From Prolixibacteraceae bacterium (GTDB lineage: Bacteria > Bacteroidota > Bacteroidia > Bacteroidales > Prolixibacteraceae), in contig CAXXUQ010000003.1 in assembly GCA_963676015.2 (NCBI GenBank), positions 58,256 to 122,255 on the forward strand: a DNA stretch of 64,000 nucleotides. Direction: 5' to 3'. Under the pieces are notes generated by a model. The model searched no databases. It was not told the origin of the DNA and saw only the letters and a list, made by a program, of their open reading frames with translations. Shown in pieces: positions 18,545-35,443 of this stretch. Numbering within the stretch: the first letter of the stretch is position 1; each line of letters opens with the position of its first letter. Both the position numbers and the translations under genes were made by a program.

Positions 18545-18621
18545 CAATTCCATTAATAGTTCTGATAATATAAACCGTAGATAACAACCATTAGTACTAA
18601 CAATTCAAAATTTTAAAAATC

Positions 18622-19308
18622 ATGGAACAACAACAAAGTACACGAATGACAATGGATCAGGTACCATTTGACAAACTCGAAAAGGTAGGAATCAACCGCA
18701 GCCTGATTGAAAAAATGGAACAAAAAGAAAAGACCGATTTTCTGAACGGTTTCCGTTCGGATAAACTCTACACCGTAAATGCCCGGATCGGCAATGAAGA
18801 TTACAGAATCCCTGCTAAAATCCGATTGCAAAGTAAGGAGGACGGATCAGTGGATATTAAAATTCATCCAATCCAGCGGTTGAATGTCCCCGATGAATAC
18901 ATGGGGCACAAGTTTACAAAGGAGGAAAAAGGAGCTTTACTGAATGACAAAAACCTGGGCAAAACGGTGGAACTGACTGGCCGGGATGGAAAGAAGGATA
19001 ATTATTACCTGGGTATTGATCCCAAGACGAATGAACTGATTCCGCTCCGGACAAAGATGATCCAGGTGCCGGAAAAGATTAAAGGAGTAACCCTTTCGTC
19101 GGAGCAAAAAGAAAAGCTGGCTTCCGGACAAAAAGTTGAAGTTGACGGGATGATGGGAAAGAATGAGAAGAAATTTTCAGCCACGTTGCAGGTGGATGCG
19201 GCTAACCGGAATATCAGTTTTTCGCAATTCAAGCAAGAAAAATCAGAAGACTTAAAAACCGATGCCAAACAATCAGAAAAACAAGGGGCTAAACAGAAAG
19301 TCCATTGA
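18622..19308 (+). CDS. DUF4099/DUF3945-domain ICE protein
   Basis: VPF.KLEKVGI, FTKEEK..LL...NLG, KIKGVTLS.EQKE.LA.G.KV.V.GM..K..K.FSA.LQVDA. Confidence 0.8.
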   Translation: MEQQQSTRMTMDQVPFDKLEKVGINRSLIEKMEQKEKTDFLNGFRSDKLYTVNARIGNEDYRIPAKIRLQSKEDGSVDIKIHPIQRLNVPDEYMGHKFTKEEKGALLNDKNLGKTVELTGRDGKKDNYYLGIDPKTNELIPLRTKMIQVPEKIKGVTLSSEQKEKLASGQKVEVDGMMGKNEKKFSATLQVDAANRNISFSQFKQEKSEDLKTDAKQSEKQGAKQKVH

Positions 19309-19450
19309 GTAAATAACAGGTCTCGTTTTCAAAACCGGAAGGGGAAATTCTGAAGTGCAGGTTTCCCTTTCTTTTTGGTAAAAAATGAAAAAATGAAGAT
19401 GAAAATGCAAAGAGAAAAAGCAAAGAATCAGGGAGAAAATCTTATTCAAA

Positions 19451-19527
19451 GTGGGGAATGCAAGATGTGTATTTGTATGCACAAATACCTTTTCACCTTG
19501 TCTGGCAGGAGCCAACCCACATTCCCC
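19451..19527. other. oriT candidate
   Basis: GCAAGATGT-GTATTTGT-ATGC-ACAAATAC hairpin nested in CAAG/CTTG and GGGGAATG/CATTCCCC inverted repeats, just upstream of the mobA-relaxase pair. Confidence 0.6.
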
Positions 19528-19584
19528 CCGGCTATGAATGATTCCCCTCTTTGAACTCTTGAAAACAGGAACAGGAAACAAACC

Positions 19585-19953
19585 ATGCGACCCAAATTGT
19601 CAGAGATAGATAAACGAAATGCCAAGCTCATTATCCGGGTTTCTAGAGATGAGAAGCTCAGGTTGCAAATCCTGACCAAGAAGGGAAAATATGGCTGCAT
19701 GAGTGACCTGATCCGGACAAAGGTTTTTAATGAGTCAAACCGAAAAGTTATTTCGCTGGACGAGGAAACCAACTCACAGCTTAAAAATCTGGATTATGAA
19801 TTGAACAAGATCGGAGTCAACCTGAACCAGCTTTCCAAGCGTATGAATTCGTTTGCAGGTTACAATGTTGGGGACAATGATCGTCAATTGCTCCGTCAGG
19901 CTTTTGATATGATGAGAAATTGCCTGATACTACTTCAGAAATTTCTACACTAA
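19585..19953 (+). CDS. relaxosome accessory protein (MobA/MobC-like, RHH)
   Basis: N-terminal RHH-like region; ELNKIGVNLNQL.KR.N motif. Confidence 0.9.
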   Translation: MRPKLSEIDKRNAKLIIRVSRDEKLRLQILTKKGKYGCMSDLIRTKVFNESNRKVISLDEETNSQLKNLDYELNKIGVNLNQLSKRMNSFAGYNVGDNDRQLLRQAFDMMRNCLILLQKFLH

Positions 19954-19992
19954 TTTACCTATCTGTCCCGGCCAATCTCAAAGTACAAATCA

Positions 19993-20910
19993 ATGGTTAT
20001 TAAAATCCACCAGGCATGTAGTACGCAAAACGCTTTGTTTTACAATGAGCGGAAGGTCTTTCAGCACAAAGCTACTTTTTACCACAGTCGGAATACCCCG
20101 GAAATCAATCCTTTTCTGGGAGACAAGAATGCCAGAAATCAGATATTTAAAGAGATTGAGGACAGGAACACCCGTGTTCGAAAGAAAGGGTTGCATATTT
20201 CGGTGAACCCTACTGTTGGGGATTTGGTCAGGCTAGGAGATGCCGGGATCAGGACAGAAATTGATAACCTGATGAAACATCTGGGCTATGGGAACCAGCC
20301 TTATCTGGTATATAAACATGCCGATCTGGAACGGGTGCATTTTCATATTGTTTCGACAAGGATTGATTGTGAAACCGGCAAGAAAATCAAAGACAATTAC
20401 GAAAAGGAAAAAACACAGCGGTTCATCAAAGATTTGGAACAAAAGTATCAGTTAACGAAAGATGATAATCCGGAGAAGCTTAACTTCAGGTTCTCTAATT
20501 CGAGCAAAGACCTGAAACAAAACCTTGAAAACCTTTTTGGACAGTTGAACCGGATGGAGTTTATCACATCCAAAGAAATGTATGATCAGGCACTGGGGTT
20601 ATTTCAGGTAGAAATCCGAAGAGCAGGAAGAGGTCATCTGGTTTTTGTAGTTAATGAAAATGGAAATCCGATCCGTCATCCGGTTAAGATGTCAGACTTT
20701 CAGGATAGGCCTAAGTTTTATTTGTCTGAACAGCAGAATTTGGGTCAACATTCTAAGCAACATCTCAATCCGGATCAAACAGGACAGGGCACAGGAGTTT
20801 TAAAATCATTGATTTTGAAAGAATTGATCAGACAATTAGGAAGCAATCAACAAAAAAAAGAACAGAGATTGAGGTTGCAGAAGAAAAAAGAGAAAAAGTA
20901 CAGACCATAA
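19993..20910 (+). CDS. relaxase (MOB-P-like, short)
   Basis: ALFYNERK Tyr motif, GLHISVNP, YKHAD..RVHFHIVSTRI His-triad motif. Confidence 0.88.
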   Translation: MVIKIHQACSTQNALFYNERKVFQHKATFYHSRNTPEINPFLGDKNARNQIFKEIEDRNTRVRKKGLHISVNPTVGDLVRLGDAGIRTEIDNLMKHLGYGNQPYLVYKHADLERVHFHIVSTRIDCETGKKIKDNYEKEKTQRFIKDLEQKYQLTKDDNPEKLNFRFSNSSKDLKQNLENLFGQLNRMEFITSKEMYDQALGLFQVEIRRAGRGHLVFVVNENGNPIRHPVKMSDFQDRPKFYLSEQQNLGQHSKQHLNPDQTGQGTGVLKSLILKELIRQLGSNQQKKEQRLRLQKKKEKKYRP

Positions 20911-21068: not shown

Positions 21069-23270
21069 ATGAGCAATAAAGCCCACAATAAATTAGTAAG
21101 TTTCATCTGGAGCATTGCCGATGATGTTTTAAGAGATGTATTTGTCAGAGGTAAATACCGGGATATTATTCTACCATTTACCGTTCTCCGTCGACTGGAT
21201 GTATTACTTGAAGAAACCAAAGAAAAGGTACTCGAAACCAATGCTTTTTTAGAGAAGGAAGAAATTGACAACAAATCGGCACTGAAAGATTTCTCAGGTT
21301 ATCCGTTCTATAATGCTTCACGTTTCACGATGGGAAAAAACTGTGAAGAAAACGCGAAATTCAAGTATGTTTCTTTAACATCAGATCCTGACCGAATTGA
21401 TACCAACCTTTTGGAATATCTCGATGGTTTTAGCGAAAACGTTCAGGAAATAATCAGTAAGTTTAAAATCAGGAACCAGCTGGAGACCATGCAGGATGCC
21501 GGTATTACATTTAGCCTGATTGAAAAACTGGTGTCCAATGAGATAAACCTGAGTCCAGACGAGGTTGTAAATTCAAAGGGTGAGATACTTCCGGCATTGA
21601 CCAATTTAGGAATGGGATACGTTTTTGAGGAGTTGATTCGTAAGTTCAATGAAGAGAACAACGAAGAAGCAGGAGAACACTTTACACCACGTGAAATCAT
21701 CAAGTTGATGACACATATTGTTTTTGAGCCATTGAAAGGCAAATTCCCTGACGGGGCACGTTTCACCGTTTACGACCCTGCTTGCGGTAGCGGTGGTATG
21801 CTAACCGAATCGGAAGGATTTGCTTTGCGCATTACCAATAACAAATGCAAATTTCAGTTGCACGGGCAGGAAGTAAATCCGGAAACGTATGCCATTTGTA
21901 CGTCTGACTTGCTGATTAAGGGAGAGGAAACCAGCAACATTGCCTATGGATCAACCCTCTCGAAGGATGGTTTTCGCGGACAGGAGTTCGATTTTATGCT
22001 CTCGAATCCACCTTACGGAAAATCGTGGGTAAACGATATGGACGCTATTGTGGCTGATAAAAAAGAAATTATTGATCCGCGTTTCACCGTTGGAGTTCCC
22101 CGCAGCAGCGATGGACAGTTACTCTTTCTGGCCAATATGGTCTCCAAAATGAAAAAGAGCAGCAAGCTTGGCTCCCGTATCGCTTCAGTTCACAATGGCT
22201 CAGCACTTTTTACCGGCGATGCCGGTGGAGGTGAAAGCAATATCCGAAAATGGATCATCGAAAACGACTGGCTCGAATGCATCATTGGTTTACCGAAGAA
22301 CATGTTCTACAATACAGGCATTTCAACCTATATTTTCTTTCTGAACAACCGGAAAGAAGACGAGCGAAAGGGGAAAGTTCAGTTGATTGATGCCAGCGAA
22401 ATCTATACCAAAATGCGCAAGTCGTTGGGCGCCAAATCGCACGAATTGACAAAGGATCAAATTGATGAGATCACTGCAATTTATCTTGATTTTAAAGAAA
22501 CAGAACAATCTAAAATATTCAACAATTCTGATTTTGGATACCAGAAAATAACCATTGAACGGCCTTTGCGTTTGTCTGCTAAATTTTCAGTTGAAGCCAT
22601 CGAAAGCCTGCGTTTTGCCGATGGACTGCGAGATGAAATGGAATATATCTACCAAACGTATGGCGATGCCATTTATACAAATCTTGATCCACACGAAAAG
22701 GCTATTTTGAAACATTTCGAAAAGGAAGAAATAAAGCTCACAATAGCTCAAAAGAATAAGCTTTTTGATACAAAGACATGGCTGACACAGCGCTCAGTGC
22801 TGGAAACGGCGCAACAGCTCATGAATGAGATCGGCCCGGGGCAAAGCAGCAATTTCAACACATTTACTGTGACACTTGATAAGGTTATTAAAAAGCTGAA
22901 CCTTAAGCTCGATAATTCGGCAAAAAAACAAATCATCGCGGCGATAACCTGGAAAAACGAAGAGGCTGAAAAGGTGATCAAAAAGAAAGAAAAGAACGGA
23001 ACGATCAGCTATGAATCAGATTCAGAATTACGCGACAACGAAAATGTGCCATTACTCGAAAACATTGATTCCTACTTCAAACGGGAAGTTTTGCCGCATC
23101 TTCCGGATTCCTGGATTGATTGCGATAAAACCACTATTGGCTATGAAATATCTTTTACCAAATACTTTTACAAATACCAGCCTTTGCGCGGATTAGAAGT
23201 TATTACAAAAGAGTTAATGCAGGCGGAGAAAGAGAGTGATGGTTTATTACTTGCAATTATTAACGGATAG
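21069..23270 (+). CDS. hsdM: type I R-M methyltransferase subunit
   Basis: GEHFTPREII, YDPACGSGGML (motif I), LSNPPY (motif IV), N-terminal IWSIADDVLRD. Confidence 0.96.
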   Translation: MSNKAHNKLVSFIWSIADDVLRDVFVRGKYRDIILPFTVLRRLDVLLEETKEKVLETNAFLEKEEIDNKSALKDFSGYPFYNASRFTMGKNCEENAKFKYVSLTSDPDRIDTNLLEYLDGFSENVQEIISKFKIRNQLETMQDAGITFSLIEKLVSNEINLSPDEVVNSKGEILPALTNLGMGYVFEELIRKFNEENNEEAGEHFTPREIIKLMTHIVFEPLKGKFPDGARFTVYDPACGSGGMLTESEGFALRITNNKCKFQLHGQEVNPETYAICTSDLLIKGEETSNIAYGSTLSKDGFRGQEFDFMLSNPPYGKSWVNDMDAIVADKKEIIDPRFTVGVPRSSDGQLLFLANMVSKMKKSSKLGSRIASVHNGSALFTGDAGGGESNIRKWIIENDWLECIIGLPKNMFYNTGISTYIFFLNNRKEDERKGKVQLIDASEIYTKMRKSLGAKSHELTKDQIDEITAIYLDFKETEQSKIFNNSDFGYQKITIERPLRLSAKFSVEAIESLRFADGLRDEMEYIYQTYGDAIYTNLDPHEKAILKHFEKEEIKLTIAQKNKLFDTKTWLTQRSVLETAQQLMNEIGPGQSSNFNTFTVTLDKVIKKLNLKLDNSAKKQIIAAITWKNEEAEKVIKKKEKNGTISYESDSELRDNENVPLLENIDSYFKREVLPHLPDSWIDCDKTTIGYEISFTKYFYKYQPLRGLEVITKELMQAEKESDGLLLAIING

Positions 23271-23273
23271 AAA

Positions 23274-24410
23274 ATGGATTTTGAATCAATACAAGCCTTT
23301 TTGCATAAGGCAGATATCCCCAAAATAAAACGTCAGCCTAAAACCTTCATGGGTATTGCGGGGCAACCTCATTACGAAAACGTATTATCCAATATGTATT
23401 CCTTTTATTTTGATGCCAAAGAAGAACACGGATTAGGTGATCTCTTTATTTTGACACTTATACAAATGGTGCAAGAGACAGAGGTTGGGAAGCAGAAGAA
23501 TTTTGCCTTTGCTAACGACCTCTCTAATGAAACTGAATTTCCTACAAAAAAAGGAGGTAGAATTGATTTGTTGTTAACCGACGATTTGCATAGCATAATT
23601 ATCGAAAACAAGGTCTACCATACTCTGAATAACGATCTGGAAGATTATTGGAATTCTGCAAAAGGCGCTGTTGAAAATAAAATTGGCATTGTACTCTCGT
23701 TGTTTCCCATAAACAGCACCGGACATCACCATTTTATTAACATTACACATCCTGTATTTTTGAAAAGGGTAATTGCAAACAGTGGAAATTATTTATTGGA
23801 GGCAAACGATAAATACATGGTCTTTTTAAAAGATTTAGTTCAAAATATTATCAATATGAGCACAAGCATAATGAATAAGGCTGACTTGGAATTTTATTTC
23901 GGAAATCAAAAACAAATTAATGAAATAGCCAGTTTCAAACATCGGGTGAAGACCCATATTTTAAGTGAAGTGGAAAAGGTGCCTGCTCAACTTGATGAGA
24001 AATTTGGATTGGTGCTATCTGGTAAAAGAAGTGACCGTTTGCGATATTACATTTCTTCGGTTAACAGCAATCTGATGATTACCGTGATTGTTGAAGGCTT
24101 GTTATTGTCTGAGAACAAAAAGATGCATATTGTAGTCGAGTTGGCTAAAAGCGCTTTAAAAAATAAAGAGATTTATAAAACAATCAATTTCTCGCAGGAA
24201 GAGGTAAGTGCCAATGTATTTGTTCCGGATTTTTATACCAACAACAGCAATGCTTGGGCTCACTTTGCCACAAAGGCCTACCATCCTAACGAACAGGAAA
24301 TTGCGCATTTAAGCCAATTTATTATAGACAAACTACAAAAGGATCATTTTCTTTCCATCTACCAAAAACTGAATCAACTATTTGCTAATCGAAACAGCAA
24401 CAATGTCTAA
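23274..24410 (+). CDS. PD-(D/E)XK nuclease (PDDEXK_4-like)
   Basis: HYENVLSN, GRIDLLL...IIIENKV.H.LNNDL.DY. Confidence 0.85.
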   Translation: MDFESIQAFLHKADIPKIKRQPKTFMGIAGQPHYENVLSNMYSFYFDAKEEHGLGDLFILTLIQMVQETEVGKQKNFAFANDLSNETEFPTKKGGRIDLLLTDDLHSIIIENKVYHTLNNDLEDYWNSAKGAVENKIGIVLSLFPINSTGHHHFINITHPVFLKRVIANSGNYLLEANDKYMVFLKDLVQNIINMSTSIMNKADLEFYFGNQKQINEIASFKHRVKTHILSEVEKVPAQLDEKFGLVLSGKRSDRLRYYISSVNSNLMITVIVEGLLLSENKKMHIVVELAKSALKNKEIYKTINFSQEEVSANVFVPDFYTNNSNAWAHFATKAYHPNEQEIAHLSQFIIDKLQKDHFLSIYQKLNQLFANRNSNNV

Positions 24411-25776
24411 ATACAAAACATATCCAACATATAAAGATGCCGAAATTCAATGGCTGGGAGAAATTCCGTTGCATTGGAAGGAAATTAAAACAAAGTTTCT
24501 ATTTGCAGAACGTGTTGAGAAGGGGCATCCAAATGAAACATTATTAGCTGCAACCCAGACTCAAGGGGTTATATCAAAAGATAAATATGAGACGAGAACA
24601 GTTACGGCTCAAAAAGATTTTCATTTACTAAAACTTGTAAAAAAAGGTGATTTTGTCATCAGTTTACGCTCTTTTCAAGGTGGTATTGAGATTGCTCATG
24701 AACAGGGCATTATTAGCCCTGCTTATACAATTATGGAAGGTGAAGCGACCGTTTTTAATGGGTATTTCAAACATGTTTTCAAGTCAAATAATTTCATTAG
24801 TGGTCTTACAACCTTCGTAACCGGTATTCGTGAAGGTCAGAATATTGACTATTCTAAATTTAGAATGTCATATTTACCACTTCCTCCACTCTCTGAGCAA
24901 ACTGCCATTGCCAATTTTTTGGACCGAAAAACAAGAGAAATAGATGGTTTTATTACGTTTAAAGAAAAAACCATAGCCTTGCTCAAAGAGCGCAAAACTG
25001 CTATTATTAACAAAGCTGTAACCAAAGGATTAGAAGATACCGCACCGATGAAAGATTCGGGTTACGAATGGTTAGGCAAAATTCCAGCACATTGGCTGGT
25101 GAAACGATTGCGTTATTTGGGGAAATGCCAAAATGGAGTAAGTAATGGTGCTGATTATTTTGGCTCGGGATACCCATTTGTTAATTATGGTGATGCCTAT
25201 AAGAATAGAGTTTTGCCTAATGATGTTTCGGGTTTGGCAAAAGCTACAAAAAGAGATCGGGAATTATATTCGGTAAAGCGTGGAGATGTATTTTTTACCC
25301 GTACTTCAGAAACTATTGAAGAAATAGGTTTTGCATCAACTTGTGTAAAAACAATTGATGATGCTTCCTTTTCAGGTTTTCTAATACGATTTAGACCGAT
25401 GAAGAATTGCTTAGACACTTCATTTTCAAAGTACTATTTCAGGAGTAATTTGCATCGTCCTTATTTTACCAAAGAGATGAATTTGGTTATCCGGGCATCA
25501 TTAAGTCAGGATTTATTGAAAGGTTTGCCCGTAATTCTCCCTTCTCTTTCTGAGCAAAAGTTAATTGGTGATTATTTAGATCAACAAATTGCCAAACTTG
25601 ACCTATCCATTGCACAGGCTGAAAAGGAAATTTCATTGATCAAGGAATACCAACAGAATTTAATTAGTGAAGCAGTTACCGGAAAGATTGATGTAAGAGA
25701 TGAGATTAAAGTTGATATGCCTTTGAATCTTGCAGCTGAAGGTGAAGTTGCTTATAAGGCTATAACTCAAAGGTAG
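24403..25776 (+). CDS. hsdS: type I R-M specificity subunit
   Basis: Two TRDs with repeated YKDS..WLG.IP.HW and LP.LSEQ..I..(F/Y)LD linkers. ATG 24403 overlaps the upstream stop. Confidence 0.95.
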   Translation: MSKYKTYPTYKDAEIQWLGEIPLHWKEIKTKFLFAERVEKGHPNETLLAATQTQGVISKDKYETRTVTAQKDFHLLKLVKKGDFVISLRSFQGGIEIAHEQGIISPAYTIMEGEATVFNGYFKHVFKSNNFISGLTTFVTGIREGQNIDYSKFRMSYLPLPPLSEQTAIANFLDRKTREIDGFITFKEKTIALLKERKTAIINKAVTKGLEDTAPMKDSGYEWLGKIPAHWLVKRLRYLGKCQNGVSNGADYFGSGYPFVNYGDAYKNRVLPNDVSGLAKATKRDRELYSVKRGDVFFTRTSETIEEIGFASTCVKTIDDASFSGFLIRFRPMKNCLDTSFSKYYFRSNLHRPYFTKEMNLVIRASLSQDLLKGLPVILPSLSEQKLIGDYLDQQIAKLDLSIAQAEKEISLIKEYQQNLISEAVTGKIDVRDEIKVDMPLNLAAEGEVAYKAITQR

Positions 25777-25788
25777 TGTAATGATGAT

Positions 25789-25994
25789 ATAACCTCTAAA
25801 GGTTATATTGGTACTTTATAACCTAATAAGGTTATAATTACCGATCGTTTTAGAGTTGATAATGAAAGTGCAATTTAACCTGAAAGGGGACATGAAACAA
25901 ACTTGCACAATTCAGTTCATGATAAATGTGATAAAAGAGTTGCGAATATAACTCATATAGGTTATATTGGTGCATTATAACTCATATAGGTTAT
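25789..25994. promoter_or_regulatory. four palindromic operators ATAAC(C/T)-N6-GGTTAT in two 29-bp-period pairs
   Basis: 25789-25806, 25818-25835, 25948-25965, 25977-25994. The spacers ATTGGTACTTT and ATTGGTGCATT are also alike. Confidence 0.75.
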
Positions 25995-26030
25995 ACTTTG
26001 TCCTCACATGCTACAATTAAGTTTAGAGAT

Positions 26031-26687
26031 ATGGATACAATTAAGGCTGTTCTAACAGGTGATCTGATACAATCACGAAAACTTACTAACGATGATATGG
26101 AGAAAGTGCTAAATGCACTTCACGATACATTCAGTGAGATTCAGGAGAAGATCTTGCAAAAAGAAGCTTACTTTGAAATCTATAGAGGTGATAGTTTTCA
26201 GGTACTGATTAATGAACCTCAATTGGCGCTGAAAGTCACACTCATATTAAAATCCCGTTTACTTAGTCTCTTCGGTCCGTCTAAAGTGAAACCTAATGCA
26301 CGGATAGCCATTGGTATTGGAACAATACGCATGCAAAACAGCAAAATCATTGAATCTCATGGAGAAGCATTTGAACTTTCAGGTTTTGAACTCGATAAAA
26401 TGATTAAAGAATCAACATCAATAAGTATTAAAACTCCCTGGGATGCCGTTAATGAAGAACTCAAAATAAATTGTCTGTTTGCCGACAATACAATCAACAA
26501 TTGGAGTCCAATAACCGCAGAAAGTATATTTAGATACCTGTTGTATGGTGAGACACAGGAAAAACAAGCCCAATATTTTAAAGTTTCTCAGCCTGCCATT
26601 AGTAAGAGACTATTTAATCAGGGAAATATGAAAGCCGTAGATGCTTTTCTGAAACGATTTGAATATATCATCGAAAATCACAAATAA
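26031..26687 (+). CDS. satD: SatD-family protein (class III nucleotide cyclase-like domain plus C-terminal HTH)
   Basis: VLTGDLIQSR, IYRGDSFQ, ARIAIGIG, GEAFELSG; C-terminal TQEKQAQYFKVSQPAISKRL HTH. Likely start ATG 26031. Confidence 0.85.
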   Translation: MDTIKAVLTGDLIQSRKLTNDDMEKVLNALHDTFSEIQEKILQKEAYFEIYRGDSFQVLINEPQLALKVTLILKSRLLSLFGPSKVKPNARIAIGIGTIRMQNSKIIESHGEAFELSGFELDKMIKESTSISIKTPWDAVNEELKINCLFADNTINNWSPITAESIFRYLLYGETQEKQAQYFKVSQPAISKRLFNQGNMKAVDAFLKRFEYIIENHK

Positions 26688-26695
26688 ATAAACAC

Positions 26696-27550
26696 ATGGA
26701 TTACATTCTACTTATACGTCTAATCCTGGCACATCTGATTTCCGATTTTGTCCTTCAACCTACCAAATGGGCAAAAGACAAAGACTCCAACGGATTTAGT
26801 TCTGGCTATCTCTACTTGCATATATTGGTCACAGGTATTACTGCAATGCTTTTGGTTTGGGACACGAACTATCTCTTGCCAATTGTTATTCTGACTTTCA
26901 TCCATGGACTCACCGATGGCATAAAAGGTGAATTAAATAAACGATTCCTCGAAAAATCGCCACTACTAAAACCTTCCTTCAAGAAATCATTGCTATTCAA
27001 ACATTTTCTTAAAAGAATATCACCATTATCCCTTTTTATATTCGATCAAATAATTCATGTTCTCATCTTGGGCACGATGTGGATGTTAATCACCAACGAG
27101 TCTGCAAAATTCTGGACTCAATATGGAATATTACTTCAAAGTCAGAAATTCTGGCTCTACCTATTAGGCTACATCTGGATTTCCATTCCAATTGCTGTTA
27201 TCATTGGCAAAGTAACCGACAAATGGAATAATGAACTAAATTTCCCTCAAACGTTAGAAGAAGGTACAGAAGCAACTAACATTCAAACTACAGACAAGAA
27301 AGTAAAGTCCGGACTTACGAATGCAGGCAAATGGATAGGCATCATCGAACGCATACTAATTCTAACGTTTGTACTAAATCTGCAATTTGCAGCCATTGGC
27401 TTCATGCTTACCGCTAAATCGGTATTTCGGTTTGGCGATTTAAAAGATGGTAAAGACCATAAAAAAACCGAATACATCATCATTGGAACATTCTTAAGTT
27501 TTATGCTATCCATACTAACCGGAATAGCCATCAATTACCTTACCACGTAA
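26696..27550 (+). CDS. DUF3307-family polytopic membrane protein
   Basis: LAHLISDFVLQP, YLH, HGLTD, FIFDQIIH, GKWIGIIER, AKSVFRFGDL, TEYIIIGT. Confidence 0.88.
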   Translation: MDYILLIRLILAHLISDFVLQPTKWAKDKDSNGFSSGYLYLHILVTGITAMLLVWDTNYLLPIVILTFIHGLTDGIKGELNKRFLEKSPLLKPSFKKSLLFKHFLKRISPLSLFIFDQIIHVLILGTMWMLITNESAKFWTQYGILLQSQKFWLYLLGYIWISIPIAVIIGKVTDKWNNELNFPQTLEEGTEATNIQTTDKKVKSGLTNAGKWIGIIERILILTFVLNLQFAAIGFMLTAKSVFRFGDLKDGKDHKKTEYIIIGTFLSFMLSILTGIAINYLTT

Positions 27551-27560
27551 AGCTCTACTT

Positions 27561-30500
27561 ATGCCCCAAGCCACCGACACTTCTGAAAAAGGATTTCAAA
27601 AACTCATAGTCAGTCAATTGATTGAAAAGCAAGGCTATGTTGAAAGTTTCTCTGCCGATTTTGATAAGGAATTTGCGGTAAATAAAGATCAGTTGTTTCG
27701 GTTTATTGAGCAAACACAACCCGAATATTGGGCATATATCAAACTTCGGGGCGAACGTAAATTCCTTTCTTTGTTGGATGCCAAAATTAAGAAAAAGGGC
27801 ACAGTTGAAGTGTTTCGAAAAGGGGTGGCATTCAACGATAAAACAGTTAAACTATTTTATCCGCAGCCCAATTCAAGCTATAATTTAAAAGACAGGGAAA
27901 ATTTTAGGTCCAATATTTTTTCGGTTACTCAGGAGTTAGTTTATACAACCGATCAGGCCAATCGTCTCGATTTGACCATTTTTGTAAATGGCTTGCCCAT
28001 TTGTACGATGGAATTAAAAAACGCATTTACTTATCAGGCGGTAAAAAATGCCATTCATCAATACATGTTCGACCGTAAATCGAAAGATAAACTGTTAAAC
28101 CAAGGCAGGTGTATGGTACATTTTGCAATGGACACCACTCTAGTTTACATGACTGGCGCACTCAATAACAATGAGACTACTTTTTTCCCTTTTAATAAAG
28201 GCTTAAACGATGGCAGCGCCCACCCACCATTTGGTGCCGGGAATCCGGTGAATCCCGATGGCATTAAAACAGCCTACATGTGGGAAAAAATCCTGACGAA
28301 AGGAAGTTTGGCAAACATTATTGAAAAATTTGCAACATTCTTTCCTAAAAAGAACATGCAGATTTTTCCAAGATACCACCAGTTAAAAGTGGTTCGCAAC
28401 CTGTTAGCTGATGCCAAAGAAAAAGGAGTTGGTCAACGTTACCTGATTCAACATTCCGCCGGTTCAGGTAAATCAAACTCCATCACTTGGTTAGCGCATC
28501 AACTGATTGGCCTTTACAATGCCGACACAGTAACTCCTCTATTCGACAGCGTATTAGTAGTAACCGACCGCACCAATCTCGACGAACAAATACGTGAAAA
28601 CATCAAAGACTTTGCTCAGGTAAAAAGGGTAGTCGAAGCCATTACCGGAAAGGCAAAAGACATTAAAGCCATCGACCCTGCAGAACAGGTATTCAGCAAA
28701 ACGGTTCACATGCGTTTGGCATTGGCCAATAACAAGAAGATTATTACCTGCACAGTACAAACCTTTCCTTTTGTGCTGAAAGTAATTCAGGATATGGCTG
28801 CGAAAAAGGTTGCCATTATCATTGACGAAGCACACTCCAGCCAAAGTGGCCTTGCGGCAGCCAGTATGAATGCTGTATTTGCTAATGAAAAATTTCAGGA
28901 CCTTCCCACCGATGAAGAGGGAAATATAAATACGGAAGATCTGGTCAATTATCTGGTAGAGAGCCGTAAAATGTTAAAAAATGCCAGCTATTTTGCCTTT
29001 ACAGCAACGCCAAAAAATAAAACATTGGAAACGTTTGGTATAAAAGTACCCTACATCAATGAACATGGAGAAGAGCATTTTCAATCTTACCCATTTCATA
29101 CCTATTCCATGAAGCAGGCCATTGAAGAGGAGTTTATTTTGGATGTATTGAAGAACTACACCACTTACAAGTCTTTCTTCAAGATCAAAGAAAGCGAGAA
29201 AGCTTCCGGGGAAGAGGAATACGATACCAAAAAGGCAAATAAAAAGATTCGTTCATTTGTGGAAGGGCATGAACTGGCAATAAGCGATAAAGCCCGAACC
29301 ATGATTGATCATTTCAACAAACATGTTTATTTTCTGATCGATCACAAAGCCAAAGCAATGGTCGTTTGTAAGTCGATTGAAGCTGCCATGAAATATAAAG
29401 ATGCGTTTGACCACTACCTGAAAGAATTGAATAGCCCGTATAAATCGATTGTTGCTTTTTCGGGCAAAAAGAAACATTATAAAACTGGAGAAGAGCTAAC
29501 TGAAGAAAAAATGAACGCTTTTTCCGATGGCATCAACGACATACCAAAACAATTTAAAAAACTCGAATACCGTTTCTTAATTGTAGCTGATAAATACCAG
29601 ACAGGTTTCGATCAACCATTGTTACATACCATGTATGTCGACAAAGAGTTGTCTGATGTACAGGCAGTTCAAACACTTTCGCGCTTAAACAGGGCATACA
29701 AGCCTGCGAAGAAAGACACTTTTGTACTCGATTTCTTTAACATTACTGAAGACATCAAAGAAGCATTTAAACCATATTACACCACAACAATTCTAAGTCA
29801 GGAAACAGATGCAAATAAATTAAACGCACTTCAGGAAGATCTTGATGAATTTCAGATTTATGATGAAGACCAACTGCTGCAATTCTTCAAACTATACCAC
29901 AATAGCAATGAAAAGAACGACAACAGGCCGAAACTTGACCGCATTATTGATGTGATACAGGCCTGTTTCGCCGAGGATTTAATTAAGGATCAGCAAATTG
30001 ACTTTAAAAGCAAAGCGAAATCTTTTGTAAGGACTTATAGCTATTTGGCAAAACTGCTCGATTTCAATAAAACCTATTGGGAAATGCTGTGGTTAGTGCT
30101 TAAACATCTCATTCCGCACCTTAAAATTGCTGAAGATGCGCCAGATGAGAACATTCTGGAAGTAATTGATATGGCAAGTTACAGTAACCGGAGTCAGGAG
30201 AAAAATATAGAAATTGAATTGGTAAACGAGCCAGGAATAGTTGAACCTATTCCTGTAGGTGGTGGTGGTGGAAGTTCGGCACCTGAGTATGATAAATTGA
30301 AAAACATTGTAAAACAGTTTAATGAACGATTTGCCAAAGATTTGGAAGAGTTTGGTGAGAATCAAGCTGAAGCAACAGAAATTCTATCAGTGGGTATTCC
30401 ACAAAAACTAAAAGAAAATGAGGCCACTTTAAAAACAATTGCCAATTCAGATAAGGCCAATGCCAAAGATGAAGCAGATTTCCAGTTAAAGGCACTCATG

Positions 30501-30641
30501 CAAAAGCTGATGTTTACCAATACCGGTCTGTACAAAAAATTTCTTGGTGATGAAGATTTTCGCAACCGATACGAGGAATTTATTTTCGATATGCTTTGGC
30601 AGGAGGTGAAGGGGGTGCCCAATCAAATAAAAGCGCGTTAA
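27561..30641 (+). CDS. hsdR: type I R-M restriction subunit
   Basis: RLDLTIFVNGLPICTMELKN nuclease motif, QHSAGSGKS, IIDEAHSSQ, FTATPK, KYQTGFDQP, VQTLSRLNR. Confidence 0.96.
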   Translation: MPQATDTSEKGFQKLIVSQLIEKQGYVESFSADFDKEFAVNKDQLFRFIEQTQPEYWAYIKLRGERKFLSLLDAKIKKKGTVEVFRKGVAFNDKTVKLFYPQPNSSYNLKDRENFRSNIFSVTQELVYTTDQANRLDLTIFVNGLPICTMELKNAFTYQAVKNAIHQYMFDRKSKDKLLNQGRCMVHFAMDTTLVYMTGALNNNETTFFPFNKGLNDGSAHPPFGAGNPVNPDGIKTAYMWEKILTKGSLANIIEKFATFFPKKNMQIFPRYHQLKVVRNLLADAKEKGVGQRYLIQHSAGSGKSNSITWLAHQLIGLYNADTVTPLFDSVLVVTDRTNLDEQIRENIKDFAQVKRVVEAITGKAKDIKAIDPAEQVFSKTVHMRLALANNKKIITCTVQTFPFVLKVIQDMAAKKVAIIIDEAHSSQSGLAAASMNAVFANEKFQDLPTDEEGNINTEDLVNYLVESRKMLKNASYFAFTATPKNKTLETFGIKVPYINEHGEEHFQSYPFHTYSMKQAIEEEFILDVLKNYTTYKSFFKIKESEKASGEEEYDTKKANKKIRSFVEGHELAISDKARTMIDHFNKHVYFLIDHKAKAMVVCKSIEAAMKYKDAFDHYLKELNSPYKSIVAFSGKKKHYKTGEELTEEKMNAFSDGINDIPKQFKKLEYRFLIVADKYQTGFDQPLLHTMYVDKELSDVQAVQTLSRLNRAYKPAKKDTFVLDFFNITEDIKEAFKPYYTTTILSQETDANKLNALQEDLDEFQIYDEDQLLQFFKLYHNSNEKNDNRPKLDRIIDVIQACFAEDLIKDQQIDFKSKAKSFVRTYSYLAKLLDFNKTYWEMLWLVLKHLIPHLKIAEDAPDENILEVIDMASYSNRSQEKNIEIELVNEPGIVEPIPVGGGGGSSAPEYDKLKNIVKQFNERFAKDLEEFGENQAEATEILSVGIPQKLKENEATLKTIANSDKANAKDEADFQLKALMQKLMFTNTGLYKKFLGDEDFRNRYEEFIFDMLWQEVKGVPNQIKAR

Positions 30642-30658
30642 AAACCAAACTATAATCC

Positions 30659-31657
30659 ATGCAAACAGCCCTCTATCTCAATAACAAGCGGTTCACCGAA
30701 AAAGAATTTTCCAAGGAAAAAGAGTTGGAAGATCTGATGTTTCAGAATAGCAAAAATCTATTCGGTCAACATAGCATCATTATCGAAGCAAAAAAGAAGA
30801 TCGACCATAAAACATTAGGTGGTACTATTCCTGATGCTTTTCTGTTCGATCTCAACGACCCGGAGAATCCGGAGTTTTACCTCATTGAGGTAGAGTTGGC
30901 TAGCCATAGTTTTTTCAACCACATTTTTCCACAGATCACCAAATTCTTTGCTTTTTTCAAAAATTCGGTCAGCCAGAGCGAATTAATTGAGAAACTTTAT
31001 TCCCTGATCAATGCTGATGCAGGATTAAAGAAACAGTTTAAAGATCGTATCGGAAATAAGGAAATATTCAAATTCATTAAGGACACTATTGAGAACAGTC
31101 AAAACATTTTGTTGATGCTCGACAATGAGAAACCCGAGCTGCCTGAGATCATTAATACCTATACCGACACATGGGGTAAAATTGTTAAGCTTACTTTGCT
31201 AAAAGAATACACTCATAACGGCGAAAGCATCATCAGCCTGACTCCCGAATTTGCCAATATTGTTACAGTGGGACTCGCAACAGAGAAGGAAGCTCCCGGT
31301 TCATATACTGAAGAATATCATTTGGAAGGTACTTCCCCGGAAATAAAAGAAGCATACCGCACAATGCATGATGCACTAACCTTTCAGACAAAAGACATTA
31401 TTTTTAACCCGTTGCGCTACTATATTTCGTTGCGTAAAAAGAAGAACTTCGCCTTCATTCATGTCAAAAAATCAAAAATGACCATTGTTGCCATGATGGA
31501 TCAGCCTTCAATTGAAGAACGGATCAAACACCATAAAATCAATACCCTTGCCGCAAGTGTCCAGAAATTCTATAACGGTCCATGTGCTCAAATAGTAATC
31601 ACTGACAATTCAAATATGAACGAAATAATCAATCTACTAGTGGAAATACAAAAATAA
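30659..31657 (+). CDS. PD-(D/E)XK (NucS/EndoMS-like) nuclease fused to a DUF5655-like C-terminal domain
   Basis: EKELEDL, IPDAFL, LIEVEL in the N-terminal part; YTEEYHL...YISLRKKKNFAFIH.KK in the C-terminal part. Confidence 0.7.
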   Translation: MQTALYLNNKRFTEKEFSKEKELEDLMFQNSKNLFGQHSIIIEAKKKIDHKTLGGTIPDAFLFDLNDPENPEFYLIEVELASHSFFNHIFPQITKFFAFFKNSVSQSELIEKLYSLINADAGLKKQFKDRIGNKEIFKFIKDTIENSQNILLMLDNEKPELPEIINTYTDTWGKIVKLTLLKEYTHNGESIISLTPEFANIVTVGLATEKEAPGSYTEEYHLEGTSPEIKEAYRTMHDALTFQTKDIIFNPLRYYISLRKKKNFAFIHVKKSKMTIVAMMDQPSIEERIKHHKINTLAASVQKFYNGPCAQIVITDNSNMNEIINLLVEIQK

Positions 31658-31794
31658 TCTGATTTAATGGATTTTTTGAGGTGTAGCAACGTTCGTTCAA
31701 TTGAGGCAAAAGCAAAATTGTGGAGAAAGAGTGTGAATGAAAATGTTTTTAGTGAGGATAGGTTAAAGTCAAAATATTGTCTAAACATATTTGA

Positions 31795-33186
31795 ATGAGA
31801 GATACATTGTTTATTAGCCATGCAACTCCTGAAGATAATGAGTTTGCTATCTGGATTGGGTCAAGGCTGGAGATGTTGGGATATAAAGTTTGGATAGATA
31901 AAGATCGATTGCTTGGTGGTGAACCTTTTTGGAGAACAATTGACGGTGTGATTAGAAACGATGCAGTAAAAGTATTGTTAATCTATTCAAATAACATCTG
32001 TCTTTCACCAGGCATTCTTAAGGATGGCATAGATAAAGAATTTTCTCTTGCTGAAGCTATTGCGAAAAGTGAAGGTCTATCTGATTTTATAATACCTCTG
32101 AATATTGATAAAGATGTACCTTATAATTCCTTTATTGGTTCAAATAGACTTAATCAAATACCATTCTTTGGCAATTGGGCAGAAGGACTAAAACAGCTAT
32201 TGAAGAAATTGATTAATGACAACGTTCCCAAGCTAAAAGAGATACAAGAATCAACTTTTTCTGAATGGTATGAGAACGAATATATTTCAAACTGCTCAAT
32301 TATTTCGAAAAAAGAATTGTATTACTCTTCCTGGTGGCAAATTGCAGAAATGCCACCAAGGTTTTACATGTTTAAATTTACGAATGCTGAGCAAGCAAAA
32401 GCAGTTCGAAACGCTAATACATTGCCTGTTAGTCTTTTGTCTAACACTATATCAGCGTTTGATGAAAATATCAATTTTACTGTAACAAGAGAAGATGAAG
32501 AAATTGAGGTACTACCCGAAGCTACATATTCATTTTCTTTAACTGATATTCTTGACGGGTTTCTGTCAGAATCTTTTCCACAGCATAAGGATGCTGAAAA
32601 TCATTTCAAATGGTTATTGAGAGGTGTAATAACTAATTTGTTCAGGAATAAAGGACTGTGGAAACAAGAGATGTCAAATAAAAAATTTGTTTATTTTTTG
32701 CCAAGTTATAATGATTTAAAACCAGTTAGTTTTAAATATCCATTCTCTAGCCCAAATAAAAAGGATAAAAGAAAATCAATCGTTGGAAAATTCGAGGATA
32801 TCGGAAAGTGGCATTACGCTGTTTCGTGTCAAACTAGTTTGTCCCCAATTGTCGGGTTTTCATTAAAATCTCATTTGGTTTTTACCAGTGACGGTTTCAA
32901 ATTACTGCAAGATGAGAAAAAGGTTCATGGATATAGAAGGAAAAAGGGAAGACGATTCTTTAATGATGAATGGAGAGATCTGCAACTGGCATTTATTCAA
33001 AGATTAAAGGATAATGATAATGAAATAAAAATAAAGGTTTCAAATGAAGGATGGTATTTGAAAATGGAAAACTGGACTGAGATGTTTTGGAGCGATGTAG
33101 GTTATCGAGATCCTAGCACACCTATGGCTGTTGAAAAAATTGAAGATTTCTTTGAAGAACCTCATAACGAAGAAAATGATGATTGA
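31795..33186 (+). CDS. TIR-APAZ effector of a SPARTA system
   Basis: LFISHATPEDNEF.IW....L...GYKVW.D TIR start, catalytic Glu in DKEFSLA, FIIPL.ID; APAZ half with ELYYSSWW, WHYAVS, KSH.VFTSDG, RRKKGR.FFNDEWRD. Confidence 0.93.
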   Translation: MRDTLFISHATPEDNEFAIWIGSRLEMLGYKVWIDKDRLLGGEPFWRTIDGVIRNDAVKVLLIYSNNICLSPGILKDGIDKEFSLAEAIAKSEGLSDFIIPLNIDKDVPYNSFIGSNRLNQIPFFGNWAEGLKQLLKKLINDNVPKLKEIQESTFSEWYENEYISNCSIISKKELYYSSWWQIAEMPPRFYMFKFTNAEQAKAVRNANTLPVSLLSNTISAFDENINFTVTREDEEIEVLPEATYSFSLTDILDGFLSESFPQHKDAENHFKWLLRGVITNLFRNKGLWKQEMSNKKFVYFLPSYNDLKPVSFKYPFSSPNKKDKRKSIVGKFEDIGKWHYAVSCQTSLSPIVGFSLKSHLVFTSDGFKLLQDEKKVHGYRRKKGRRFFNDEWRDLQLAFIQRLKDNDNEIKIKVSNEGWYLKMENWTEMFWSDVGYRDPSTPMAVEKIEDFFEEPHNEENDD

Positions 33187-34693
33187 CCCTGAATTAAAAT
33201 ACCTTAGCGAACCTTTTCTAACTTTCAATAATGGGCAAAAGGCAATAGATCCGCGAGATGGATTAATGTTATTTGGTCCATTTTCACAAAAAAAAGTTAA
33301 AGGACAAAAGACTATTGGTCTTATTGGACCTGCGATTTTGCGAAATAGAATGTTAGAGTATTTAAAAAAGCTGCATGCACCGATTTTAAATTCCGATAGA
33401 TCTATTGCCCGACCTAGCTTCCCTGGACTTGAAACAATCTTTGATATTTATGTAAATTTCGAAAATGTTTCACAAATCGAAATTTCTCAAAATGAGATTG
33501 ATAAATATTTGAAATTTAGGGATTCACATCAGCGAGTTCACAATTGGACCAATTTATATGTTGACAAATTGAAAGAATATGCAGATAATGAGGAAATACC
33601 TGTTGACGTTTGGATAATTGTTATCCCAGAATGCATTTTCCAGTATGGAAGGCCAAATTCGAAGATACCAAAATCAGCCGATGTTATAAATGAAGGATTA
33701 AGTATTGCTAAAAGGAATTCACCTCAATTAGATATGTTTTTTCAGGACGAAATTGATCAATTGAAAAAAGCGTATGAATTTGAGATCAACTTTCACAATC
33801 AATTAAAAGCAAAGGTTTTATCAGATAAAATTATTACCCAAATTATTAGGGAAAGCAAAATCTCATATGAAGAGTTGTGGGATAATCCTGAAAAGATTGA
33901 TGCTGAACGTAAATTCGACAGTGCTAAAGCATGGAATATATCTACGGCCTTGTATTATAAGCTTGGTGGTTTACCATGGAAACTTGGAGATGTAAGAGAG
34001 AATGTATGTTATTTAGGTCTTGTTTATAAAAAGACTGATGCGAATGAGAAAAATAAAAATGCTTGTTGTGCTGCTCAAATGTTTTTAGATTCTGGGGATG
34101 GTATGGTATTTCGCGGGAATGTTGGTCCTTGGTGGAATCCAAAAACTGGTGAATTTCATTTATCAAAAAAGGATGCCACTGATATAATATCTCAATCTTT
34201 AGAGTCTTTTTACAATAACTCCGGACATTATCCAAAGGAGGTATTTATTCATGCAAAAACTTATTTTGATGACACAGAATGGGAAGGATTTGAGGAGGCT
34301 GCAAAGGGGAAATGTAAAATAATAGGTGTAAGGATTAGGGAAAATAATACATTCAAATTATACCGACAACAGCAATACTGTATTCCAAGAGGTATGATGT
34401 TGCATTTTGATGATAATAAGGCATATTTATGGACAAAAGGATTTATTCCGCGTTTTCAGACTCAAATTGGATTGGAAACCCCAAATCCGCTAGAAGTAGC
34501 CATAACACGCGGTAAATCAGAAGTTGAGATTGTTTGTAAGGATATTCTGGGATTAACGAAGTTGAATTATAATACTTGTATTTATGGTGATGGTGTTCCC
34601 GTAACATTAAAGTTTGCTGAAGCCGTAGGGGAAATTCTAACGTCAGGTAAAGATGTAAAAGGTGGAGTTTTGCCATTTAAACATTATATATAA
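33176..34693 (+). CDS. short prokaryotic Argonaute (MID-PIWI, catalytically inactive) of SPARTA
   Basis: EP.L.F..GQK..DPRDGL.LFGP, FHNQLKAK, AWNISTALYYKLGG.PWKL, CYLGLVYKK, ACCAAQMFLD.GDG, LTKLNYN.CIY.DG.PVTLKFA. Start overlaps the TIR-APAZ stop. Confidence 0.95.
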   Translation: MMIDPELKYLSEPFLTFNNGQKAIDPRDGLMLFGPFSQKKVKGQKTIGLIGPAILRNRMLEYLKKLHAPILNSDRSIARPSFPGLETIFDIYVNFENVSQIEISQNEIDKYLKFRDSHQRVHNWTNLYVDKLKEYADNEEIPVDVWIIVIPECIFQYGRPNSKIPKSADVINEGLSIAKRNSPQLDMFFQDEIDQLKKAYEFEINFHNQLKAKVLSDKIITQIIRESKISYEELWDNPEKIDAERKFDSAKAWNISTALYYKLGGLPWKLGDVRENVCYLGLVYKKTDANEKNKNACCAAQMFLDSGDGMVFRGNVGPWWNPKTGEFHLSKKDATDIISQSLESFYNNSGHYPKEVFIHAKTYFDDTEWEGFEEAAKGKCKIIGVRIRENNTFKLYRQQQYCIPRGMMLHFDDNKAYLWTKGFIPRFQTQIGLETPNPLEVAITRGKSEVEIVCKDILGLTKLNYNTCIYGDGVPVTLKFAEAVGEILTSGKDVKGGVLPFKHYI

Positions 34694-34786
34694 CACATAA
34701 TACTACTCACAGAGATGAATTAAGTTTGATCTCTATTTACAATACGTCATTTGTTTTGTATTTAACTCTGTATTAAAAAACACCTT

Positions 34787-35035: not shown

Positions 35036-35043
35036 TTTTTTAC

Positions 35044-35304: not shown

Positions 35305-35443
35305 ATTTACATATATAATTGTACGTAAAAGTATAAAATTAAGATAATTTAGTATATAAGTTGTACTTATAGATGTACATTTTATTTTGTGGTCAAATTT
35401 GTCCTTTTGAATTTCACATCAATATTTCACTTTTAAAAGAAAA

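Follow-up and report, generated by a model that had tools for sequence, protein, structure and literature searches.

A conserved SatD-DUF3307 cassette with its own phased palindromes lies between hsdS and hsdR in a type I restriction-modification operon of a Prolixibacteraceae bacterium

Why should the type I restriction-modification (R-M) operon of a mobile element be split, between hsdS and hsdR, by a gene of the SatD family followed by a gene of the DUF3307 family? The question is raised by a 64,000-nt stretch of DNA from a Prolixibacteraceae bacterium (contig CAXXUQ010000003.1, assembly GCA_963676015.2), called the window hereafter, in which hsdM, hsdS and hsdR are all found by Pfam within one operon and in which the surrounding region is a cargo island on a conjugative or mobilisable element (Table 1). 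An earlier note on this DNA had correctly placed satD and the DUF3307 gene, with their coordinates and the 8-bp gap that separates them, between hsdS and hsdR, and had proposed that the pair is a nucleotide-signalling defence system; this latter claim is weakly supported by what follows. We favour a composite reading in which satD and DUF3307 form an autoregulated, possibly toxin-antitoxin-like cassette that is carried as R-M cargo and that also gates hsdR, and we consider the chances of this composite being right or wrong to be evenly balanced.

The two genes make up an obligate unit. satD is followed by an adjacent DUF3307 gene on the same strand in 75 of the 80 genome loci, the commonest junction being a 4-nt overlap, and the five exceptions consist of two contig ends, two loci in which satD is not called as an open reading frame (ORF) and one in which neither gene is called. 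No further neighbour is common to the cassette, the 438 flanking proteins falling into 310 clusters. In the window, satD runs from an ATG at 26031 to a TAA ending at 26687, and this ATG is aligned with the start codons of its relatives; a longer ORF starting from TTG 25998 was rejected as satD on the same ground. No SatD-DUF3307 fusion was found among the longer proteins of the top 150 representative matches, three of the five checked being SatD joined to TPR repeats. These rare SatD variants (P0285, P0318 and P0320) reach 420-577 aa, with the TPR repeats C-terminal to the helix-turn-helix (HTH) domain.

The membership of the first protein in the SatD family is secure, although it was reached by an indirect route. 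The window protein does not match the Pfam SatD model PF16264 even at E ≤ 10, and direct searches of Pfam, NCBIfam and PHROG with its ORF gave nothing meaningful, so that homologue searches were needed. Full-length relatives that are 35-45% identical to it (E 1e-27 to 1e-49) carry PF16264, often alongside the sigma-70 region 4 HTH models PF08281/PF04545, and membership is thus established by transitive homology. The profile of these relatives defines a family of at least 4387 clusters at 50% identity with a nearly uniform architecture of 210-245 aa.

What does this protein look like? Its N-terminal part is predicted to adopt the palm (beta-alpha-beta-beta-alpha-beta) fold of class III cyclases and GGDEF domains, as the earlier note had supposed. 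The AlphaFold2 model (pLDDT 95.6, pTM 0.93) finds as its best Foldseek matches in the PDB class III adenylyl/guanylyl cyclases and GGDEF domains (E ~2e-4), with a target-normalised TM-score of up to 0.6 and with 4wp9, 5o5k and soluble guanylate cyclase among the top matches, while the SatD family profile retrieves the class III cyclases 3mr7 (E 9e-4) and Ma1120 from the PDB in the range of 9e-4 to 9e-3. In the profile alignment, LTGD falls on the strand-1 Asp of the cyclases, YRGDSFQ on their hairpin GD motif and DARIAIGIG on their RIGI(H/N)xG strand (YRIGINIG, VRIGIHMG), all in register. The two acidic motifs that had been noticed in fusion with an HTH, GDLIQS (residues 10-15) and RGDSFQ (residues 52-57), are indeed present, and they contain D11 and D54, which occupy the places of the two metal-binding Asp residues of class III cyclases on strand 1 and on the beta2-beta3 hairpin. 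Besides, R91 stands on the RxGxxxG strand, where an Arg binds phosphate in mammalian and mycobacterial cyclases. In a first alignment of 50 sequences, the invariant positions were T9-G10-D11, R52-G53-D54-S55-F56-Q57, R91, G95, G97, G111, A113, S117-G118 and W158. When counted on 328 non-identical members, conservation is complete for D11 (327/327 with a residue at this column), D54, Q57, G95, G97 and G111; R52 is kept in 326 members, and position 91 holds an Arg in 318 members and a Lys in 9. The window protein departs from the family at residue 89 (26295-26297), which is an Asn where 319 of the 328 members have an Asp (NARIAIGIG versus the consensus DARIAIGIG).

The model and alignments therefore confirm the fold and a metal/triphosphate half-site (D11, D54, R91), while a complete cyclase active site is not evident. 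The positions that would correspond to the transition-state Asn/Arg of helix 4 are variable in the family, both at 115 (R/Q/E/V) and at 119 (R/P/E/L), their equivalence being drawn from the model and the order of motifs since the cyclase profile alignment stops before helix 4, and the substrate-specifying residue pair is not recognisable. Because the half-site is kept and a conserved transition-state Asn/Arg is not evident, the palm domain is probably a sensor that binds a nucleoside triphosphate (NTP) and metal or, if catalytic at all, a nucleotidyltransferase with weak or atypical activity, and it would set the DNA-binding activity of SatD.

The remainder of the protein points to transcription. 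The C-terminal 80 residues of SatD are an HTH domain whose PDB profile matches include the HTH domains of DeoR, LysR, Mos1 and sigma factors, with a predicted recognition helix at about residues 186-197 (SQPAISKRLFNQ). Upstream of the gene stand four TATAAC-N8-GTTATA palindromes (25788-25807, 25817-25836, 25947-25966 and 25976-25995), which are the only four matches in the whole window against 0.1 expected from shuffles. They form a distal and a proximal pair that are 159 bp apart, the first distal palindrome beginning 12 bp past the hsdS stop and the proximal pair ending 36 bp ahead of the satD start codon. The right arm of the proximal pair overlaps a possible Bacteroidota -7-like element, TAcTTTG (25994-26000), a tentative promoter assignment made by motif; because of this overlap and of the short distance to the ATG, SatD is expected to act as a repressor. 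A small ORF or RNA in the ~110-bp spacer between the two pairs was considered and rejected, as the spacer is poorly conserved and displays non-triplet indels, and Rfam returned nothing at E ≤ 1 on 25000-28000.

The array belongs to the satD cassette and not to the R-M system, since like arrays are found 5' of satD in the close relatives L001, L004, L008, L009 and L010 whatever their gene context. The operator array that the earlier note had attributed to the pair is real, and the two genes are a dedicated unit with operators of their own, which travel with the cassette rather than with the R-M context. In L001 (9660-10000), a non-R-M locus, seven operator copies are present, five in an unbroken 29-bp-phased run in addition to the proximal pair, which suggests that these arrays expand and contract. 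The arrangement extends to the family at large: a repeat (at least 15/20) at exactly 28 or 29 bp occurs in 65 of the 79 satD upstream regions (82%) versus 12 of 249 control upstream regions taken from the same genome loci (5%), with a 28-bp phase in 34 satD loci and a 29-bp phase in 30. The repeated units are ~20-bp palindromes with lineage-specific half-sites that track the predicted recognition helix: TATAAC goes with (S/T)QPAxxKR, TATAAG with SQSAVNQR, TATCGG or TATCTG with SQSSVSER, and TATCA(C/T) with Q(N/H)AVSxR. Such co-variation is the pattern expected of an autoregulator, and control of satD by its own product through these operators appears very probable. On account of the C-terminal HTH and of the phased arrays, SatD would be first of all a transcription factor, unlike the cyclases of Pycsar and CBASS.

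The partner of SatD is a polytopic protein that matches PF11750 over residues 5-137 with 76.7 bits (E 2.1e-21) for a family cutoff of 23, and PHROG 2470 at E 1.5e-10; its relatives measure 245-290 aa. A sketch based on hydropathy and the positive-inside rule predicts ~8 transmembrane helices and a cytoplasmic location of the K/R-rich loop 78-106. The N-terminal domain carries the motifs H13xxxD17xxxQ21, H42, H70xxxD74xxK77 and D117-Q118-x-x-H121, in which H13, D17, Q21, H42, H70, D74, D117, Q118 and H121 each reach at least 99% conservation across 197 sequences, and the C-terminal module is conserved even more, with G211, G215, E218, R219, S242, R245 and E259 at 100% and K241 in 196/197. The His/Asp constellation highlighted in the earlier note is therefore invariant and defines the family, its label of metal-dependent hydrolase being a guess. 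As the K/R-rich loop is predicted to be cytoplasmic, all four His/Asp motifs would lie near the cytoplasmic face of the membrane, and this invariant His/Asp/Gln cluster suggests a metal-dependent membrane enzyme or a gated effector, possibly harmful when derepressed; toxicity as such we would put at somewhat less than an even chance. The AlphaFold2 model is all-helical (pLDDT 84) and has no PDB relative by sequence or by fold (best fold E 1.3). Matches in BFVD are only short phage DUF3307 proteins (~130 aa) that cover the N-terminal domain alone, and no cyclic-nucleotide-binding, SAVED, CARF or STING-like domain is seen by Pfam, which reports PF11750 only.

A side observation concerns the variability of this protein between the window and its sister locus L009. 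SatD and HsdR are 99% and 97% identical between the two, DUF3307 just 74%: a 190-nt segment of the window (26950-27139) cannot be aligned to L009 (10920-11049), with flanks that are 93-96% identical. The segment encodes the cytoplasmic loop, with a ~25-aa K/R-rich insertion, and the fourth transmembrane helix, and it is either a local replacement or a fast-evolving patch.

How firmly is the cassette tied to R-M? The order hsdS-cassette-hsdR is seen in five loci: the window, L009, Marinifilum L008, L093 and Lentimicrobiaceae L012, whose SatD proteins are 99%, 64%, 63% and 39% identical to that of the window for the last four, respectively. In each of them hsdR starts near the DUF3307 stop, at +10 (window), +10 (L009), +7 (L008), +9 (L093) and -4 nt (L012). 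These loci span at least two SatD clades. A neighbour-joining tree places the embedded state at the base of the window clade, where it is paraphyletic, and L012 in a distant clade with many non-embedded lineages between; the embedded loci rank by HsdM and HsdR identity as they do by SatD identity. The tree and this ranking imply either at least two insertions at one slot or an association that is very old and from which some cassettes later escaped. The association of the cassette with R-M is not random. A metagenome scan for an empty site, i.e. a close hsdR relative devoid of the cassette, gave only relatives at 37-46% identity. Separately, the two Marinifilum-type embedded loci, L008 (9402-9689) and L093 (5783-6067), share a conserved ORF of 94-95 aa after hsdS, which has no Pfam match and is absent in the window.

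At the 10-bp DUF3307-hsdR junction of the window no terminator was found, the single weak hit in 25500-27800 lying inside DUF3307; the promoter/terminator scan assumes a sigma-70 consensus, from which Bacteroidota depart, and is uninformative for this element. As the junction is so short and free of any terminator-like site, hsdR is likely co-transcribed from the promoter that SatD would control, and on this point we are fairly confident.

The slot itself is informative. In the related type I operons (hsdR 37-46% identical), the hsdS/hsdR and hsdM/hsdS junctions are hot spots for cargo, and seven of the ten cargo genes tested there match PADLOC models (PDC-M11A/B, PDC-S02, DarG, PDC-S05, PD-Lambda-3_B and HEC-05). 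The defence setting put forward in the earlier note thus holds for the slot, which houses recognised defence candidates in related operons, and is weakened for the family, most homologues being in ordinary chromosomal contexts. Among the metagenomic operons (L095-L135), a three-gene cargo block with PDC-M11A/B recurs in gut metagenomes, the other cargo including a DarG for which no clear DarT was called, along with PDC-S02, PDC-S05 and PD-Lambda-3_B; two further genes at these junctions, in L109 (326 aa) and L125 (297 aa), match nothing in PADLOC.

In the mechanism that we propose, the cassette is self-contained and sits as cargo at the hsdS/hsdR slot of the type I R-M operon of a conjugative element. 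SatD would be a one-component transcription factor whose HTH binds the tandem 20-bp palindromes 5' of its own gene, probably in a cooperative manner as an array of dimers with 29-bp phasing and a distal and a proximal set, and would most likely repress the promoter that overlaps the proximal operator. By binding an NTP and metal, or by performing an atypical reaction, the palm domain would set DNA binding. The output would be the translationally coupled DUF3307 membrane protein, possibly deleterious once derepressed, and, with hsdR on the same transcript here, the SatD-controlled promoter would also drive the restriction subunit. A role of such a device in defence or addiction in this context is a possibility to which we give a little less than even weight, and a role in the maintenance of the element is likewise hypothetical.

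A lead from the literature may be relevant to a possible harmful nature of the partner. For Streptococcus pyogenes, it is reported that a gene with the annotation satD belongs to the accessory genome (178/249 genomes) but scored as essential in every strain tested by transposon sequencing, and it is the only accessory gene that falls within the top quarter of the range of essentiality scores (PMC11323703). If the shared family name reflects equivalence, an accessory yet essential satD is the pattern expected of the repressor or antitoxin of a harmful neighbour. The supplements of that study (PMC11323703) contain no satD or satE rows.

Several points weigh against the composite that we favour. 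The S. pyogenes equivalence is drawn from a gene name that is also a Pfam family name, and a DUF3307-type satE next to that gene is an assumption. The binding of DNA or of a nucleotide by SatD is a prediction, the direction of regulation may differ from the one proposed, and the co-variation of helix and operator is confounded by common descent. As the scan consensus was that of sigma-70, an hsdR promoter internal to DUF3307 is possible. A domain that did no more than bind a ligand would hardly be expected to keep D11, D54 and R91 almost without exception, and catalysis is therefore possible. Finally, toxin-antitoxin-like modules do not usually stay syntenic over long times as the cassette does in Flavobacteriaceae, and this synteny suggests that the ancestral role of the cassette was a physiological membrane function.

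This synteny leads to the view that the pair is a mere hitch-hiker in the R-M operon, i.e. a unit of membrane or envelope homeostasis that answers a metabolic, metal or pH cue and has no functional tie to restriction or defence. Most satD loci are indeed ordinary chromosomal neighbourhoods, ~90% of those sampled being outside defence contexts, and the cassette is syntenic across genera, with thiolase, 7TM-HD and aldehyde dehydrogenase genes in Salegentibacter, Gillisia, Christiangramia and Salinimicrobium and with MurA-type transferase, DUF4290 and UvrD/PcrA genes in Polaribacter and Tenacibaculum. The size of the family and its uniform architecture fit the same view, as does a historical name with ties to the ffh/acid-tolerance operon of S. 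mutans, the Pfam family being presumably named after SatD of that species. However, a random pair should almost never insert exactly between hsdS and hsdR, which has occurred in five loci and at least two distant SatD clades, and the embedded copies are always tightly or translationally coupled to hsdR. Moreover, close relatives of the window SatD, at 76-78% identity, lie outside R-M operons, each at a different and unrelated chromosomal site (superoxide dismutase/cytochrome c; FTCD/alpha-2-macroglobulin; GTP cyclohydrolase I), and this clade therefore moves; an accessory yet essential satD in S. pyogenes also counts against a housekeeping role. We hold this explanation to be unlikely, although it deserves serious consideration. 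A functional tie could also be of another kind, the cassette timing or limiting HsdR upon entry in a new host, with SatD acting like a C-protein and DUF3307 as a co-regulated accessory. The close spacing of DUF3307 and hsdR in all embedded loci without a terminator, tandem palindromic operators that resemble C-boxes in their logic, the carriage by a conjugative element equipped with ArdC, and the parallel ordering of HsdM/HsdR and SatD identities would all agree with such a controller. Yet the vast majority of cassettes, which have this operator architecture as well, occur where R-M genes are absent, a simple repressor would cause a burst of HsdR at entry rather than a delay, and the invariant, catalytic-looking residues of both proteins would be left unexplained, all of which makes a dedicated restriction controller rather improbable.

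The nucleotide-signalling defence system of the earlier note, in which SatD would detect infection and synthesise a nucleotide signal, cyclic or linear, while DUF3307 would act alongside R-M as membrane effector or as signal-degrading hydrolase, draws on a palm fold in which the two metal-binding Asp and the Arg for phosphate binding are essentially invariant across the 328 sequences, on the invariant DUF3307 cluster predicted to face the cytoplasm and on the embedding at a slot for defence cargo. It also draws on other defence-adjacent loci, since satD adjoins a type IIG enzyme in L056 and a PD-T4-1/PDC-S02-like nuclease in L088, and a distant satD-DUF3307 pair (29% identity) lies inside a clear defence island of a Sphingomonas insulae plasmid (L090; NZ_CP048421.1, 67061-79633), whose annotation reads AAA ATPase and helicase, TIR protein and HTH/ImmA pair upstream, and Pycsar effector and cyclase downstream. 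Precedents for a cyclase with a transmembrane effector are offered by Pycsar and Panoptes (PMC12657218, PMC12657230). Against this stand the variable transition-state positions and the missing substrate-specifying pair, an HTH and operator arrays that indicate transcription as the output, and a DUF3307 protein that lacks any cyclic-nucleotide-binding, SAVED, CARF or STING-like domain. No PADLOC family was matched by SatD or by DUF3307 at E ≤ 0.01 (v2.0.0 of 2023, which is older than Panoptes). SatD is rare on plasmids, with matches in 3 of 72,556 records, and DUF3307 has no match in a phage collection in which SatD itself was not searched. With these scarce mobile records and the syntenic contexts above, homologues are largely of the housekeeping kind that the earlier note itself had named as telling against its proposal, and a nucleotide-signalling defence system has, in our view, a slim chance of being correct. 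Equally slim is the chance that SatD is an active atypical nucleotidyltransferase or cyclase whose occupancy or product controls operator release and DUF3307, licensing HsdR when embedded.

The cassette resembles several known systems without coinciding with any of them. By sequence and model, SatD shares the palm fold with class III cyclases (Ma1120 from Mycobacterium avium, PDB 4wp9; 3mr7) and GGDEF domains, with the strand-1 Asp, the hairpin Asp (xGDxF) and the Arg of the RIxIG strand in register, but its domain is shorter (~135 aa) and directly fused to the HTH, the inferred transition-state Asn/Arg positions are not conserved and the substrate-specifying pair cannot be recognised. Mycobacterial cyclases of the Rv0386 type are proven cyclases of ~1000 aa with a C-terminal LuxR-type HTH and an ATPase and TPR region between the two domains. 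Like them, SatD joins an HTH to a domain of class III cyclase type within a single chain, with TPR repeats in rare variants; unlike them, it measures 210-245 aa, its palm adjoins the HTH and it has an obligate membrane partner. With Pycsar, CBASS and Panoptes the cassette has in common a small nucleotide-synthase-like protein next to a membrane protein and an occasional presence in defence islands, whereas its HTH and operator arrays and the location of most members outside such islands set it apart. SatD is not a PycC-type cyclase by the PADLOC search, DUF3307 shows in Pfam and PADLOC no cyclic-nucleotide-binding domain fused to transmembrane or TIR segments as in Pycsar effectors, and the class III/GGDEF palm of SatD, with no PADLOC match, differs from the Pol-beta-type CD-NTase of CBASS. 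Panoptes (mCpol, a stand-alone minimal Cas10-type palm synthase, with a 2TM-beta or CARF-TM effector) differs in architecture from SatD with its HTH and its partner of ~8 transmembrane helices.

Closer to the preferred reading are type II toxin-antitoxin and abortive-infection modules, which likewise are translationally coupled two-gene operons with the DNA-binding protein first and palindromes at their own promoter. Of the autoregulation by an upstream DNA-binding protein that typifies them, the operator arrays and the helix co-variation are seen here and repression is predicted; the accessory yet essential upstream gene of S. pyogenes and the carriage on a mobile element beside R-M and YoeB/YefM add to the likeness. 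However, the downstream product is a polytopic protein of 250-285 aa with enzyme-like invariant residues and not a small toxin, the upstream protein has a palm domain, and the cassette is stably syntenic in many Flavobacteriaceae. As for C-proteins, SatD is similarly an HTH protein located upstream of, and probably co-transcribed with, a restriction gene and associated with tandem palindromic operators, but C-proteins are Xre-type proteins of ~80-100 aa that are specific to type II systems, to which SatD is unrelated, and it mostly occurs without R-M genes.

Around the cassette, the island and its element contain further genes (Table 1). A DUF3945/DUF4099 protein is also encoded among the backbone genes within 15948-20910. 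The PD-(D/E)XK gene inside the operon and the DUF5655 gene behind hsdR are two more candidates for a defence function. Just downstream of the R-M operon, the TIR-APAZ and short pAgo genes (31795-34693) resemble a SPARTA-type short-Argonaute defence system. Downstream of hsdR (30642-35714), the window and L009 have no DNA in common until 35715-35984, and the block formed by the DUF5655 gene, the SPARTA-like pair and YoeB-YefM is thus variable cargo relative to this sister element.

Table 1. Features of the R-M island, the satD-DUF3307 cassette and the element backbone (positions in the window)
Feature	Position	Strand	Remarks
Type IV secretion system coupling protein	15948-18032		Element backbone
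MobC-like protein	19585-19953		Element backbone
Relaxase	19993-20910		Element backbone
Upstream half of type I R-M operon (hsdM, PDC-S26 gene, hsdS)	21069-25776	+	
hsdM	21069-23270	+	Pfam N6_Mtase and HsdM_N
PD-(D/E)XK gene between hsdM and hsdS	23274-24410	+	PDDEXK_4; PADLOC candidate PDC-S26, E 1e-56
hsdS	24382-25776	+	Pfam Methylase_S
Intergenic region hsdS to satD			254 bp
Distal operator pair (predicted)	25788-25836		20-bp palindromes TATAACCTCTAAAGGTTATA and TATAACCTAATAAGGTTATA, 29 bp start-to-start
Proximal operator pair (predicted)	25947-25995		TATAACTCATATAGGTTATA twice, 29 bp start-to-start
satD	26031-26687	+	218 aa, divergent SatD family (PF16264), putative one-component regulator
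SatD palm domain, residues 1-135	26031-26435	+	Minimal class III cyclase/GGDEF type
SatD HTH, residues ~160-217	26508-26681	+	Sigma-70 region 4 / DeoR N-terminal type
DUF3307 gene	26696-27550	+	284 aa, long-form membrane protein, ~8 predicted transmembrane helices
DUF3307 N-terminal domain, four transmembrane helices	26696-27106	+	PF11750, PHROG 2470
DUF3307 C-terminal module, residues 206-284	27311-27547	+	NAGKWIGxxER, AAKSVFRFGDLK, KTEYIIIG
hsdR	27561-30641	+	Pfam HSDR_N, ResIII, SWI2_SNF2, T1R_D3
DUF5655 gene directly after hsdR	30659-31657		PADLOC PDC-S18, E 1e-13
TIR-APAZ gene	31795-33186		PADLOC Aga_TIR-PNTD1-PNTD2, E 1e-146
Short pAgo gene, overlapping the TIR-APAZ gene	33131-34693		PADLOC pAgo_I, E 5e-200
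YoeB/Phd-YefM toxin-antitoxin pair	34787-35304	-	Beyond the island
ArdC anti-restriction protein	35980-36894		Element backbone, beyond the island

Both Pfam families and their adjacency are already known from databases, and the literature searched holds no mechanistic description of SatD or DUF3307, in agreement with the earlier note. To our knowledge, the family-wide phased operators, the recurrent embedding in R-M operons with coupling to hsdR, and the pairing of a one-component regulator built on a cyclase fold with a membrane protein whose fold is unsolved are new.

To conclude, two families of unknown function are paired in an obligate manner, both with invariant residues of the kind found in enzymes, and they offer several handles, namely predicted DNA sites with their characteristic phasing of 28/29 bp, a one-component transcription factor that makes use of a cyclase fold, and a membrane fold without solved relative that has a His/Asp centre predicted to face the cytoplasm. 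Should the R-M-embedded copies have no part in defence, addiction or the control of restriction, they would be a caution against guilt by embedding, as ~90% of the family is found in ordinary chromosomal contexts. If SatD proved to be an active enzyme whose occupancy or product governs both operator release and DUF3307, the cassette would be a membrane effector module under signalling control, of a novel class, and its copies in type I R-M operons would combine abortive infection, addiction and restriction control in one device. Were the embedded copies to serve any of these three ends, namely defence, addiction or the control of restriction, they would constitute a new type of cargo for type I R-M systems, and they would also explain why satD behaves as an essential accessory gene in S. 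pyogenes.

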